Shown here piece after piece: positions 38,716-44,038 of a DNA stretch of 64,000 bases; the stretch's first letter is position 1, and each line of letters begins with the position of its first letter. Below the pieces are notes generated by a model. It was given only the letters and a program-made list of their open reading frames with translations, searched no databases and was not told the DNA's origin. A program made the position numbers and the translations under genes. The stretch covers positions 128,179 to 192,178 of the forward strand of contig CAWCAP010000009.1 in NCBI GenBank assembly GCA_963793395.1. Reading direction: 5' to 3'. Source of the stretch: Bryobacterales bacterium. GTDB lineage: Bacteria > Acidobacteriota > Terriglobia > Bryobacterales > Bryobacteraceae.

Positions 38716-40296
38716 CTAGTCGATGAAGCTGTAAGCCGGCAGCGTCAGAAAGTCGGAGAAATCCGCGCTGGTCATCATCTGCCGGAAGATCTGCGAAGCC
38801 TTGGCGAATTCGCCGCTGCTAGGCCCGCGCTTGGCGAGCAGATCGTCCACGACGCCGTTGACCATCTCAGCGGTCACCGGACGCCCGTCGTCGAGCTTGG
38901 CGCCCCACTTCACCCACTGCCACACTTGTGCGCGGCAGATTTCGGCGGTGGCGGCATCTTCCATCAAGTTGTAAATCGGCACGCAGCCCACGCCGCGCAG
39001 CCATGCTTCGAGATATTGCAAGCCCACGTCGATGTTCCAGCGCAGACCCGCTTCAGTGATCGTGCCGTCCGAAGGCGTCAGCAGATCCTTTGGCGTGATA
39101 TGCACCGGCTCGCGCTTGATCGAAATCTGATTCGGAGTCGGCATGCCTTCGTCGAAAACTTTCTTGGCGATCGGCACCAGACCCGGGTGCGCCACCCATG
39201 TTCCGTCGTGACCGGCTTTCACTTCGCGAAGTTTGTCCAGGCGGACTTTTTCCAGCGCTTCTTCGTTGGCCACCGGATCGTTCTTGATCGGCACCTGTGC
39301 CGCCATGCCGCCCATGGCGTGAATGTTGCGGCGGTGGCAGGTCTGGATCAGCAGCTCGACGTAGGACTTCAGGAAATGCCGCGTCATCGTGACTTCCGCG
39401 CGGTTCGGCAGCACGAATTCCTTGTGATTGCGGAATTTCTTGATGAAGCTGAAAATATAGTCCCAGCGTCCGCAGTTGAGTCCCGCGGAGTGATCCTTCA
39501 GCTCATACAGAATCTCGTCCATCTCAAAGGCAGCGAGAATGGTTTCGATCAGCACCGTGGCGCGGATGGTCCCGCGTGGTATTCCCAGCGCGTCCTGCGA
39601 GAAATTGAAGACATCGTTCCACAGGCGGGCTTCCAGATGGCTCTCCAGCTTCGGCAGATAGAAGTACGGGCCGGAGCCATTCGCGATCAACTGCTTGGCG
39701 TTGTGGAAGAAATACAGACCGAAATCGAACAGGGAGCCGGAGATCGGCTTGCCGCCCAGCAGCACATGTTTTTCGTCCAGATGCCAGCCGCGCGGGCGCA
39801 CCAACAGTGTTGCGATTTTGTCGTTGAGCTTGTACTTCTTGCCTTCCGGGCTGGTGAACTCGATGGTGCGCCGGTTCGCGTCGCGCAGATTGATTTGGCC
39901 GTCAAGATTGTTGGTCCACGTCGGCGAATTGGCGTCTTCGAAATCCGCCATGAAAACGTTCGCGCCGCAGTTGAGCGCGTTGATGACCATCTTGCGATCC
40001 ACCGGTCCGGTGATCTCGACGCGGCGATCCATCAGATCTGCCGGGATGGGAGCTACTTTCCAGTCGCTGGTCCGAATCTCGGCGGTCTCTGTAAGGAAGT
40101 CCGGGTAATGGCCGGCGTCTAGTTCGGTCTGACGCACTTGCCTGCGGGCCAGCAGCTCTTTCCGCCGCGCGTCGAATTGAGCGGCAAGGCTGGCGACGAA
40201 ACGCTGCGCTTCCGGGGTCAGGATTTCGGCATAAGTCGGACTGATCGGCGCATTGATCTGGAGTTCTAATTCTTGAACTTGCGTAGTGCTTGACAT
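38716..40296 (-). CDS. aceB: Malate synthase A
   Basis: 526 aa, collinear with E. coli AceB as I recall it ([83 protein letters not shown]). Confidence 0.95.
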
Positions 40297-40303
40297 ATAT
40301 TTA

Positions 40304-41570: not shown

Positions 41571-42542
41571 CTACCGAGAGGAAATGGCGCCTAACAGCCT
41601 CGTACAAGCATATACCGTCCGCGTGTAGGGCATGGAAACCTCTAGGCGCTCGCCCAATTCAACCACCGCGCCGACTACCGCTTCCAGTTCCATGGGCCGG
41701 CCGGACTCCAGATCCTGGAGCATGGAAGTCTTATGCTCGCCGATTTTTTCCGCGCCCGCGATGCGCTGATCGACTGATATCGGCATTTCGATTCCCATTT
41801 TCGCAGCCACCGCTTCCACTTCGAGCATGATGTTGCGGACCGCGTGGCGTACTTCAGGATCGCCCGCCATCTGTGCCAGCGTCGCGCGCGTCAATGCGCT
41901 GATCGGATTGAAGGCGACGTTGCCCAGGATCTTGACCCAGATCTCAGTGCGGATCTTCTGCGTGACGGGGCAGCGGATGCCGGCCTTGATCAGCGCCTCC
42001 GAGATGGCCTTGCAGCGATCCGAACGCGTGCCGTCGGGCTCGCCGAGCGACAAGCGATTGCCTTCGGTATGGCGGATCACGCCGGGCTCCACAATGTCCG
42101 TGGCGAAATACGCGATAGAGGCGACCACATTCTTCGCCGGGATCGCCGCCGCGATCGCACCGCCGGGATCGACACGTTCTAAATGCAGACCGGTGAGTTC
42201 GCCAGCGTTGGTCTGAAAATACCACCAGGGAACGCCATTCTGTGTGCTGACGACCGTGGTGTTCTCGCCGATCAGAGGCTGCACTTGCGGCGCGAGCAGC
42301 GTCAGGCCGTTGGCTTTCACGCCGAGGAAGATGACATCCATCGGCCCGGCCTCCGCAAGGTCGCCGACGATCCGCGGATGGACCTCAAACTCGCCCTCGT
42401 CGCCGATCACTCGCAGCCCGCGTTCCTGCATCGCGCGCAGATGCGGACCGCGCGCGTACAAAGTGACATCCTGGCCTGCGTGGGCCATACGAGCGCCGAG
42501 ATATCCGCCGATGGCGCCCGCTCCTGCGATCAGAAACTTCAT
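41571..42542 (-). CDS. Ketopantoate reductase (PanE/ApbA) family oxidoreductase; candidate oxalyl-CoA reductase
   Basis: MKFLIAGAGAIGGYLGARMA Rossmann motif and ApbA C-terminal domain. Its ATG overlaps the ligase TAA (TAATG). Confidence 0.8.
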   Translation of the reverse strand: MKFLIAGAGAIGGYLGARMAHAGQDVTLYARGPHLRAMQERGLRVIGDEGEFEVHPRIVGDLAEAGPMDVIFLGVKANGLTLLAPQVQPLIGENTTVVSTQNGVPWWYFQTNAGELTGLHLERVDPGGAIAAAIPAKNVVASIAYFATDIVEPGVIRHTEGNRLSLGEPDGTRSDRCKAISEALIKAGIRCPVTQKIRTEIWVKILGNVAFNPISALTRATLAQMAGDPEVRHAVRNIMLEVEAVAAKMGIEMPISVDQRIAGAEKIGEHKTSMLQDLESGRPMELEAVVGAVVELGERLEVSMPYTRTVYACTRLLGAISSR

Positions 42543-44038
42543 TACGCGCCCGCGAGAGCTTTGCCGACTGCGCCGCGTTGGATCTTCCCGGTAGCGGTGC
42601 GGGGAATGGACTCGACTACAAATAGCTTTTTCGGCATCTTGAAATCCGCCAGCCGCTCTTTGCAGAATGCCAGGATGGCGGCCTCAGTTGCCGGCTCCCG
42701 CAGTACAACCGCGGCGTTGACTTCCTCGCCCCACATCGGATGAGGAACCCCGAACGCCAGCGCTTCGGCGACGGCGGGATGCGCCAGCAGCACTTCATCG
42801 ATCTCGCGCGGCCCGATCTTTTCGCCGCCGCGATTGATAAGTTCTTTCAAGCGGCCGGTGAGTGTCAGATAGCCATCCGCATCGAGGAAGCCCTGATCGC
42901 CGGTGCGGAACCAGCCGTTGGTAAATGACTTTGCCGTGGCCTCGGGATTGTTCTCGTATTCAGACACCACGTTGGGACCCTTGATCGACACTTCGCCGCG
43001 CTCACCCGCAGCCAGTTCATTGCCCGCATCATCCAGGATTCCGATTGTGATTCCTGTACCCGGACCGACCGAGCCCGGTTTGCGCGCGTGCGGCGGCTGC
43101 GGATTGGAGCTCATCTGGTGAGAGGCTTCGGTCATCCCGTATGCTTCCAGTACCGGAGCGCCGAACAATTCCTCCATCTTCGCCATCATCTCCGGCGGCA
43201 GAGCCGCGCTACACGAGCGGATGAAGCGCAGTCCCTCACGCCCGGCCGGCGGCTCTTTGGCGCGCGAGAGCAGCAGATTGTGAATAGTGGGCACGGCGGA
43301 GTACCAAGTTGCGCCGGAATCCGCGACAGTCCGCCAGAATGACAGCGGATTGAATTTGTTCGGCACGGCGACCGTCCCGCCGGAGCGCAGCGTCGAAAGC
43401 GTCGAGGCCACCAGTCCATGAACATGGAACAGCGGCATCACGCAAAGAGAGACGTCCTTCGGCGTGAGGCCGTAGTGCTCGACAATATTCGCGGTCGACG
43501 CCGTGATGTTGCGGTGCCGGATGGGTACGCGCTTAGGGCGGCCCGTGCTTCCGCTGGTGTGTAGCACCAGCGCAACGTCGTCGGGGCTAGGCGCAGCGGC
43601 TTTCTTTCCACTCGGCGCATTGACGATCCGAACCACGCCGGTCGCATCCATTTCGAGCGTATACACCGGAATGCCGAGTCCCGCGGCGGCCTTGCGCGCG
43701 GCGTCGGCGCCCTCGGCCATTGCCAGCAGAACTTTTGCCCCGGTGTCCTCCAGATAAAACGCGAACTCCTCTTCGCGATAGCCCGGATTCAGTGGCGCGG
43801 CCGTGCCCGCGATCGAACCGGCGAGGAAGCTGACGATGGCCGGCAGCCCATTTGGCAGCACTGTAGCCACGCGATCGCCGCGGCCGATTCCCATGGACGC
43901 CAGCGCGTCCGCCATGGCCGTGACCTGCTTGACCAGCGACTCGTAGGTGACGCGCGTTCCGGAATCTGTGAGCAGCAACGCGGTGTTCCCGGCTGGTGCG
44001 ACTTGGATCAGTTCGAGAAGAGTGTGCGGTTGAGACAT
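42542..44038 (-). CDS. AMP-dependent acyl-CoA synthetase; candidate oxalate--CoA ligase (AAE3/Pcs60-like)
   Basis: AMP-binding motif LHTSGSTGRPKRV. PLFHVHGL, WYSAVPTIH, LRFIRSCSAALPP, FGAPVLEAYGMTEASHQMSSNP, GWFRTGD, ELINRGGEKI, PRTATGKIQR. These blocks match my recollection of plant AAE3. Confidence 0.8.
   Translation of the reverse strand: MSQPHTLLELIQVAPAGNTALLLTDSGTRVTYESLVKQVTAMADALASMGIGRGDRVATVLPNGLPAIVSFLAGSIAGTAAPLNPGYREEEFAFYLEDTGAKVLLAMAEGADAARKAAAGLGIPVYTLEMDATGVVRIVNAPSGKKAAAPSPDDVALVLHTSGSTGRPKRVPIRHRNITASTANIVEHYGLTPKDVSLCVMPLFHVHGLVASTLSTLRSGGTVAVPNKFNPLSFWRTVADSGATWYSAVPTIHNLLLSRAKEPPAGREGLRFIRSCSAALPPEMMAKMEELFGAPVLEAYGMTEASHQMSSNPQPPHARKPGSVGPGTGITIGILDDAGNELAAGERGEVSIKGPNVVSEYENNPEATAKSFTNGWFRTGDQGFLDADGYLTLTGRLKELINRGGEKIGPREIDEVLLAHPAVAEALAFGVPHPMWGEEVNAAVVLREPATEAAILAFCKERLADFKMPKKLFVVESIPRTATGKIQRGAVGKALAGA

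Follow-up and report, generated by a model that had tools for sequence, protein, structure and literature searches.

Activation of oxalate by formyl-CoA transferase (Frc) needs formyl-CoA, which is supplied by oxalyl-CoA decarboxylase (Oxc). In plants and yeast the oxalyl-CoA synthetases of the AAE3/Pcs60 type (EC 6.2.1.8; Km for oxalate 20–220 μM) are followed by oxalyl-CoA decarboxylase (OXC), formyl-CoA hydrolase, and formate dehydrogenase. The Frc/Oxc route to oxalyl-CoA has been drawn in the literature (PMC13409138; PMC7486775), and in Cupriavidus necator the PanE2 homologue ApbA2 is encoded near frc–oxc (PMC7486775). In an oxalotrophy survey and two reviews, oxalate is activated by Frc or an 'oxalate CoA-transferase' (PMC10192776; PMC12927642; PMC13409138); the words ligase, synthetase, and 6.2.1.8 are absent from these three texts, as is AAE3 from the two in which it was searched. 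Here we describe a four-gene operon in a 64,000-nt stretch of DNA from a Bryobacterales bacterium (contig CAWCAP010000009.1 of assembly GCA_963793395.1, positions 128,179 to 192,178), the whole of which is referred to as the window; the names of homologues place the operon's organism in the Bryobacteraceae, Acidobacteriota. Its gene content makes oxalate utilization, dependent on CoA but not on a decarboxylase, the probable role of this operon in this member of the Bryobacteraceae. An OxlT-like protein of the major facilitator superfamily (MFS) would import oxalate, an AMP-forming ligase of the AAE3 type would convert oxalate, ATP, and CoA to oxalyl-CoA, a PanE2-type reductase would reduce oxalyl-CoA to glyoxylate with NAD(P)H, and malate synthase A would condense glyoxylate with acetyl-CoA to give malate. 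The basis of this reading is the identity of the genes by homology, the tight operon in which they lie, and their conserved linkage.

The four open reading frames (ORFs) are intact, all lie on the minus strand, and together span 38716–44038 of the window:

42542–44038, minus strand: AAE3/Pcs60-type ligase, 498 amino acids
41571–42542, minus strand: PanE/ApbA-family reductase, 323 amino acids
40304–41560, minus strand: OxlT-like MFS transporter, 418 amino acids, GTG start
38716–40296, minus strand: malate synthase A, 526 amino acids

The TAA of the ligase and the ATG of the reductase share one base (gcgTAATGaag). The TAG of the reductase is followed after 10 nt (gaggtttgtt) by the GTG of the MFS gene, with a GGAGG Shine–Dalgarno sequence spanning the reductase stop codon, and the TAA of the MFS gene is followed after 7 nt (taaatat) by the ATG of malate synthase. 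The GTG start is backed by alignment, in which residue 2 of the MFS protein (NRWF) falls on N15-RWF of OxlT. Because the junctions are either a 1-nt overlap or gaps of 7–10 nt, translational coupling within the four-gene operon is plausible. Window G+C content is ∼60 per cent throughout. The operon had been recognized beforehand by a reader who saw only the letters and ORFs of the window (the original prediction), as four almost contiguous minus-strand genes, the first two overlapping in TAATG and the further gaps measuring 10 and 7 nt, and these details all match the sequence; the ligase motifs quoted at that time (PLFHVHGL, LRFIRSCSAALPP, FGAPVLEAYGMTEASHQMSSNP, and GWFRTGD) all occur in the ligase translation.

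The ligase has the two-domain architecture of the ANL superfamily, with Pfam AMP-binding (264.7 bits) and AMP-binding_C (69.6 bits) domains. Compared with all solved structures, its top matches are three characterized oxalyl-CoA synthetases, namely LsOCS of grass pea (6qjz, 450.5 bits), AtAAE3 of Arabidopsis (5ie0, 446.8 bits), and Pcs60 of yeast (8aff, 426.3 bits), and the next relatives are a malonyl-CoA synthetase (257.8 bits) and FadD13 (234 bits); identity to LsOCS is 50 per cent over 463 amino acids. The oxalate pocket of AtAAE3 comprises V215, H216, C288, S289, A313, M314, H319, and K500, among which S289, H319, and K500 contact the substrate (PMC8905533). The equivalent residues of the window ligase are V206, H207, C276, S277, G301, M302, H307, and K485, so that seven of eight, including the contacting Ser, His, and Lys, are identical to both AtAAE3 and LsOCS while the eighth is an Ala to Gly replacement. 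The pocket residues are kept in 71–74 of 74 orthologues, if V or I is allowed at one position. The protein is predicted to be an oxalate–CoA ligase (AMP-forming) that would catalyze oxalate + ATP + CoA -> oxalyl-CoA + AMP + PPi. With an ATP-dependent ligase, formyl-CoA from oxalyl-CoA decarboxylase is not required, and since AMP-forming ligases are effectively irreversible owing to PPi hydrolysis, the direction of the pathway is constrained.

The proposal that the ligase belongs with the plant and yeast enzymes holds up: it groups with AAE3, LsOCS, and Pcs60 and apart from the ligases of fatty or aromatic acids (≤258 bits), and the pocket is kept. The accompanying description 'eukaryote-type' is a misnomer, for the family is widespread in bacteria: a scan of species-representative genomes with the ligase alignment gave 600 pattern-matched stretches, 598 of which were confirmed by tblastn, that is, at least 598. 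A HMMER search with the ligase against 50 per cent-identity representatives returned a list swamped by multi-module nonribosomal peptide synthetase (NRPS) proteins, and it also returned a natural fusion (P0317, 1105 amino acids) of an AAE3-type ligase, 54 per cent identical to the window ligase, with an Oxc-like domain scoring 642 bits on the oxalyl-CoA decarboxylase equivalog NF006721, above its cut-off of 557. This fusion ties the bacterial-type ligase clade to oxalyl-CoA. In the same protein the first two plant-type steps, oxalate to oxalyl-CoA to formyl-CoA, would be joined on one polypeptide. The adenylation (A) domains of seven NRPS-like relatives with A-T, A-T-C, or A-T-TE architecture (T, thiolation; C, condensation; TE, thioesterase; P0327, P0328, P0341, P0361, P0365, P0368, and P0374) are 50–54 per cent identical to the window ligase and keep its oxalate-pocket residues, save for Cys to Ser in some; these proteins may be oxalyl-loading modules that act on carrier proteins in natural-product pathways. 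Queries with Frc, Oxc, and YfdE of Escherichia coli and with the fusion-derived Oxc gave no tblastn match at E ≤ 1e-3 in the 64-kb window, and the claim that the window encodes neither formyl-CoA transferase nor oxalyl-CoA decarboxylase is thereby upheld, for the window and not for the genome.

The reductase carries Pfam ApbA and ApbA_C domains. It is 49 per cent identical over 321 amino acids (297 bits, E 2e-104) to PanE2 of Methylobacterium extorquens, whose protein sequence was obtained by translating the codon-optimized ORF in Supplementary Table 12 of PMC12686821, and only 25 per cent identical over 122 amino acids (38.5 bits) to E. coli PanE. The best NCBIfam model for both the window reductase (421.5 bits) and PanE2 (435.1 bits) is NF005089, which carries the name '2-dehydropantoate 2-reductase' and does not itself assert oxalyl-CoA reduction. 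In a neighbor-joining tree, the ligase-linked reductases branch by taxonomy, with PanE2 as their sister and E. coli PanE far outside. The ApbA2 protein of C. necator is 51 per cent identical to PanE2 and was chosen by Claassens et al. as a probable CoA-acylating glyoxylate dehydrogenase, with a test by growth experiment planned (PMC7486775); the window reductase is thus about as far from PanE2 as is ApbA2. It is predicted to be an NADPH-dependent oxalyl-CoA reductase (EC 1.2.1.17, in the reductive direction) forming glyoxylate and CoA from oxalyl-CoA, in line with the original prediction that it would cluster with PanE2 and not with true ketopantoate reductases.

The two remaining assignments, an oxalate/formate antiporter-like transporter and malate synthase A, are likewise sustained, each by an equivalog cut-off that is passed. 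The MFS protein scores 423 bits on TIGR04259 (oxa_formateAnti) against a cut-off of 335, and its best solved match is OxlT of Oxalobacter formigenes (8hpj, 275 bits, 40 per cent identity), with the lactate transporter SfMCT at 138 bits. All five first-shell oxalate residues of OxlT (Q34, Y35, Y124, R272, and K355) are identical in the MFS protein, as are three of four in the second shell (Y150, W324, and Y328 are kept and W352 is replaced by Y), and Q63 is replaced by Val. The protein is predicted to be an oxalate importer of the oxalate/formate antiporter family. Malate synthase carries Pfam MS_N, MS_TIM-barrel, and MS_C domains and passes the TIGR01344 malate_syn_A equivalog by a wide margin (821.2 bits against 594.5); as a predicted malate synthase A, it would convert glyoxylate and acetyl-CoA to malate and CoA.

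Conservation of the gene order was assessed on the best 80 of the at least 598 ligase loci, with the window proteins matched by tblastn, and 77 of these 80 were assessable for the gene 3′ of the ligase. The loci come from Bryobacterales, Terriglobales/Acidobacteriaceae, Vicinamibacterales, Blastocatellia/Pyrinomonadaceae, Dormibacterota, Chloroflexota/Dehalococcoidia, Binatia, Poribacteria, and some metagenome-assembled genomes (MAGs) of Proteobacteria. In 74 of the 77 assessable species genomes, the ligase gene is followed directly, on its own strand, by one for a PanE2-like reductase, and this adjacency places the arrangement far beyond chance; the 74 genomes span orders of the Acidobacteriota, Dormibacterota, Chloroflexota, and some Proteobacteria MAGs. 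An OxlT-like MFS gene follows the reductase at 25 loci, malate synthase A (at least 55 per cent identical) is present at 6, and a diverged malate synthase is present at 10. Close homologues of the reductase are also encoded on metagenomic contigs (L001–L004). All four genes, in unchanged order, occur in L002, between unrelated flanks and with type II secretion genes upstream, and in L004, with syntenic flanks; L003 is the L002 contig assembled from a second source, and L001, a 3-Mb contig, has the ligase, reductase, and MFS genes only. Malate synthase A occupies the position after the MFS gene in relatives L002, L004, L006, L016, L049, and L070, and a Vicinamibacterales locus (L023) has the order malate synthase–ligase–reductase–MFS, its malate synthase scoring 818 bits on TIGR01344.

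The four genes had been put forward as a single unit, and only part of that unit is general: the ligase–reductase core recurs in 74 of 77 genomes, but only some lineages add the transporter, and malate synthase A occurs in near relatives among the Bryobacterales and at a few further loci of Acidobacteriota. The conserved unit is the ligase with the reductase, while the transporter and the glyoxylate outlets are lineage-specific, and the four-gene Bryobacterales operon is the most complete form of this module. Neither of two candidate decarboxylases at these loci was confirmed. A protein encoded 6 kb downstream of the three-gene cluster of L001 is not Oxc, its best model being an unnamed thiamine pyrophosphate (TPP) protein scored below cut-off. 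In L083, a Poribacteria MAG, a TPP enzyme of the OXC/HACL/acetolactate-synthase superfamily follows the ligase in place of the reductase (3007–4611); it scores 300 bits on the Oxc model against a cut-off of 557, and its best model, PRK05858 'acetolactate synthase', is also short of cut-off (557 against 587).

When all ORFs of the loci were clustered and recurrent families scanned, a second conserved architecture around the ligase and reductase emerged in Terriglobales loci L032–L067 (about 5000–16400 in locus coordinates). Its components are as follows:

Diverged malate synthase: Pfam MS domains, with 319 bits short of the TIGR01344 cut-off
Class-V aminotransferase directly upstream of the ligase: best solved relative alanine–glyoxylate aminotransferase (1vjo, 369 bits)
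Ligase, reductase, and GntR/FCD regulator
TauE/TSUP-type anion transporter, anion-selective Porin_O_P porin, and PstS-like binding protein, upstream

Three types of glyoxylate-consuming enzyme therefore stand beside the pair, depending on the lineage: malate synthase A, the diverged malate synthase, and the alanine–glyoxylate aminotransferase homologue. That three such enzymes were independently recruited beside the same pair is the strongest available argument for glyoxylate as its product. The Terriglobales variant also holds a CDC48-like AAA ATPase, a POR-gamma-like protein, and a GltD-like Fe–S flavoprotein. A recurrent 281-amino acid protein with no Pfam hit accompanies the ligase–reductase–MFS cluster in 15 loci; it follows the MFS gene in L018, L019, L020, L028, and L077 and occurs in several Terriglobales loci as well, and among solved structures it comes nearest to 4-oxalocrotonate decarboxylase and 2-keto-4-pentenoate hydratase (56 bits).

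Several observations weigh against an operon for oxalate utilization. Enzyme functions, both in the operon and in its bacterial orthologues, are read from sequence, and it is from this that we infer which substrates and cofactor are used, in which direction and with what coupling transport runs, and what role the operon plays in the cell. The ligase passes no NCBIfam model, the best being 'FadD7 family fatty acid–CoA ligase' at 474 bits against a cut-off of 650, and the NRPS-like relatives at 50–54 per cent identity indicate that its clade is not functionally uniform downstream of activation. An identity of 49 per cent to PanE2 falls short of proving a common substrate for the reductase. The MFS protein also passes, narrowly, the SfMCT lactate transporter model (335.3 against 320 bits), and because R272, K355, Q34, and T38 are conserved family-wide among OxlT relatives (PMC10070484), its residues are supportive rather than diagnostic of oxalate. 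OxlT is an obligate oxalate/formate exchanger that depends on formate from Oxc (PMC10070484); the predicted route makes no formate, so the exchange partner or the coupling of the MFS protein must differ. No promoter, terminator, or regulator was identified for the operon in the window, and the locus was found in none of the RNA runs searched. Finally, in the absence of Oxc and formate dehydrogenase the route consumes ATP and NADPH, and by itself it would yield little energy.

This last point bears on the role of the operon. From the stoichiometry of AMP-forming ligases and PanE2, the cost of the route is 2 ATP equivalents and 1 NADPH per oxalate; a net gain of energy would require that malate be oxidized further. 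A 'malate cycle' that oxidizes glyoxylate has been documented in C. necator (PMC7486775), and by a rough estimate such a cycle (malate synthase, malic enzyme, and pyruvate dehydrogenase) would return ∼1 net NAD(P)H per oxalate against the 2 ATP equivalents spent. Unless genes for Oxc, Frc, and formate dehydrogenase lie elsewhere in the genome, the operon looks more like one for co-assimilation or scavenging than for an energy metabolism that stands alone. It is accordingly possible, though we hold it tentatively, that the same chemistry serves another role, in which oxalate is detoxified or scavenged, or is fully oxidized via the malate cycle, while other substrates give acetyl-CoA, NADPH, and ATP; energy might then come from Oxc, Frc, and formate dehydrogenase encoded elsewhere in the genome, as in M. 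extorquens. Such a role would suit the expense of the route, the need of malate synthase for external or regenerated acetyl-CoA, the precedent from C. necator (PMC7486775), the fact that the absence of frc and oxc is established for the window only, and the Terriglobales variants, which route the product to an aminotransferase instead. Sequence does not separate this role from assimilation, however, and the proposal refines the reading of the locus as an oxalate operon without contradicting it.

A different substrate for the ligase–reductase pair is unlikely. The pair might act on another small acid, such as malonate (through malonyl-CoA to malonate semialdehyde), glycolate, oxamate, or some other 2-oxo or dicarboxylic acid, in which case its link to malate synthase and to the OxlT-like transporter would be indirect. 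Malonyl-CoA synthetases are indeed the next-best structural relatives of the ligase, on which the NCBIfam malonyl-CoA synthase model scores 326 bits, the MFS protein passes a lactate-transporter model too, and the NRPS-like relatives show that the clade can feed other chemistry. Yet the gap in score between the oxalyl-CoA and malonyl-CoA synthetases is wide (450 against 258 bits), the oxalate pocket is kept, including the specificity-determining Ser and His, a ligase of the same type is fused to oxalyl-CoA decarboxylase in P0317, the closest characterized relative of the reductase is an oxalyl-CoA reductase, and three enzymes that consume glyoxylate have joined the pair in different lineages.

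Taking the public annotations at face value would make the ligase a FadD7-like fatty-acid–CoA ligase and the reductase a true ketopantoate reductase, placed by chance beside a transporter and a malate synthase of the glyoxylate shunt. The annotations do read 'acyl-CoA synthetase' and '2-dehydropantoate 2-reductase', FadD7 is the best NCBIfam family for the ligase, and the reductase passes the '2-dehydropantoate 2-reductase' subfamily model. PanE2 passes that same model with a higher score, however, which makes the name of the model uninformative, and the reductase matches E. coli PanE at only 25 per cent over 122 amino acids. The ligase stays under the FadD7 cut-off (474 against 650 bits), and unrelated housekeeping genes would not be expected to lie side by side in 74 of 77 genomes from different phyla, so that this account is very improbable. 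Least credible of all is the reverse direction, in which the reductase would oxidize glyoxylate to oxalyl-CoA, as proposed for C. necator ApbA2, and the cluster would dispose of glyoxylate in the form of oxalate, exported by the MFS protein: the PanE2/ApbA2 reaction has been treated as reversible (PMC7486775) and MFS antiporters can export, but an irreversible AMP-forming ligase would not free oxalate from oxalyl-CoA, the operon has no thioesterase or CoA-transferase, and its malate synthase would compete for glyoxylate.

If the oxalate reading is extended from this operon to the pair at large, the case becomes evenly balanced that ligase and reductase form a widespread, previously unrecognized bacterial module, passed down vertically in Acidobacteriota, Dormibacterota, and Chloroflexota, that turns oxalate into glyoxylate with no need of frc, oxc, or oxalate decarboxylase, with outlets to malate (malate synthase A) or glycine (alanine–glyoxylate aminotransferase). 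Microbial oxalate turnover drives the oxalate–carbonate pathway. If the extended claim is true, abundant soil phyla would be oxalate consumers invisible to surveys based on the oxc, frc, oxdC, and oxlT markers, and the ligase–reductase pair would be a new marker pair for metagenomics. Surveys of oxalate consumers do rest on these four markers (PMC10192776), and a review has warned that marker surveys underestimate oxalotrophy (PMC13409138). The loci would also offer natural, co-evolved enzyme pairs for making glyoxylate from oxalate, for which engineers now combine yeast and Methylobacterium genes. The finding is not mechanistically surprising, yet it is ecologically relevant.

Directly upstream of the ligase, at 44085–44702 on the minus strand, are genes for a HigB-like toxin (94 amino acids, PF05015) and an HTH_3 antitoxin (104 amino acids), which leave little intergenic DNA:

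44039–44084, minus strand: 46-nt spacer separating the stop codon of higA from the start codon of the ligase, the only non-coding DNA upstream of the operon

A promoter and terminator scan of 38400–44900 gave counts no higher than those of shuffled sequence and nothing usable upstream of the ligase; the 46-nt spacer has no sigma-70-like site on the minus strand, and the sigma-70 consensus may not fit acidobacterial promoters. The locus is present in two metagenome DNA runs (soil or unspecified), at a 9–13 per cent share of words. Beyond higB/higA lie a DUF1080/3-keto-disaccharide hydrolase gene and then, 2 kb upstream of the ligase, a gene for an NAD(P) dehydrogenase of the HIBADH family (45990–46883, minus strand), which is syntenic in L004 and L016. 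The HIBADH family includes tartronate-semialdehyde and glyoxylate/succinic-semialdehyde reductases, and a link of this gene to glyoxylate metabolism is possible. The 5′ neighbors of the ligase vary among close relatives: the DUF1080 gene is directly upstream in L016, a HigA homologue is present in L006, and in L004 a divergent GntR gene lies upstream together with Band_7 and hydrolase genes.

Downstream of the operon, a gamma-glutamyltranspeptidase gene (37074–38706, plus strand) is broken by single-base indels into at least four frame segments. The segments are 60–93 per cent identical to an intact 544-amino acid orthologue in L004, while the neighboring malate synthase is 96 per cent identical; the gene looks to be a decaying pseudogene and not a sequencing artefact. 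At 61092–62419 on the plus strand, ORFs of 184 and 258 amino acids might jointly be a glycine-cleavage P-protein subunit, as judged by their N-terminal sequences only. Some other window genes may likewise be split between frames, through either indel errors in the assembly or the presence of several pseudogenes.

Among the closest described systems is the PanE2 route of M. extorquens AM1 (Schneider et al. 2012, cited in PMC13409138), in which oxalyl-CoA is likewise converted to glyoxylate by a PanE-family reductase and with which OxlT-family transporters are associated. In M. extorquens and C. necator, however, oxalyl-CoA comes from formyl-CoA transferase, with formyl-CoA from oxalyl-CoA decarboxylase, whereas the window operon has an ATP-dependent ligase and the window has no oxc. 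The glyoxylate of M. extorquens reportedly passes to the serine cycle, a result attributed to Schneider et al. in 2012, whereas in the window operon malate synthase A is encoded alongside. With the plant and yeast catabolism that begins with AAE3, LsOCS, or Pcs60, the operon has the first step and the enzyme family in common, at ∼50 per cent identity and with the same pocket. The plant pathway is catabolic rather than assimilatory and decarboxylates oxalyl-CoA, giving formyl-CoA plus CO2, in contrast to the reduction to glyoxylate predicted here, and the window proteins are operon-encoded and, being bacterial, not peroxisome-targeted. The transporter is homologous to that of the OxlT/Frc/Oxc system of O. 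formigenes (40 per cent identity, equivalog passed, binding residues kept), in which OxlT exchanges oxalate for Oxc-made formate and thereby generates a proton-motive force (PMC10070484). The predicted window route would run without formate. In 2022 Robertson and Meyers are said to have proposed an oxc-independent oxalotrophy in Kribbella. As summarized in PMC13409138, this genome-based proposal also bypasses oxc and frc, via glyoxylate or glycolate, but the reductase step is ascribed to promiscuous enzymes and the scheme is actinobacterial and possibly genus-specific.

The same two-enzyme logic has been put to use in an engineered 'oxalate pathway' of Saccharomyces cerevisiae that employs FAT2/Pcs60 and M. 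extorquens panE2 (PMC12686821; PMC10127448; patent US20200199632A1), and Pcs60 and PanE2 expressed in yeast do turn oxalate into glyoxylate (PMC12686821). That construct combines yeast and proteobacterial genes for glycolate production, whereas the window operon is natural, its pair being co-inherited and equipped with a transporter and a malate synthase of its own. A full-text literature search found no description of a natural bacterial operon of the ligase–reductase kind, with overlap with the Kribbella proposal possible. The original remark that the combination was not known to have been characterized stands in so far as no such natural operon was found in the literature, but it must give way to the extent that the same pairing has been engineered in yeast (PMC12686821). 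Each enzyme family and each reaction is already known from these systems; the new part is the natural, widely conserved ligase–reductase module, with its lineage-specific transporters and glyoxylate outlets.

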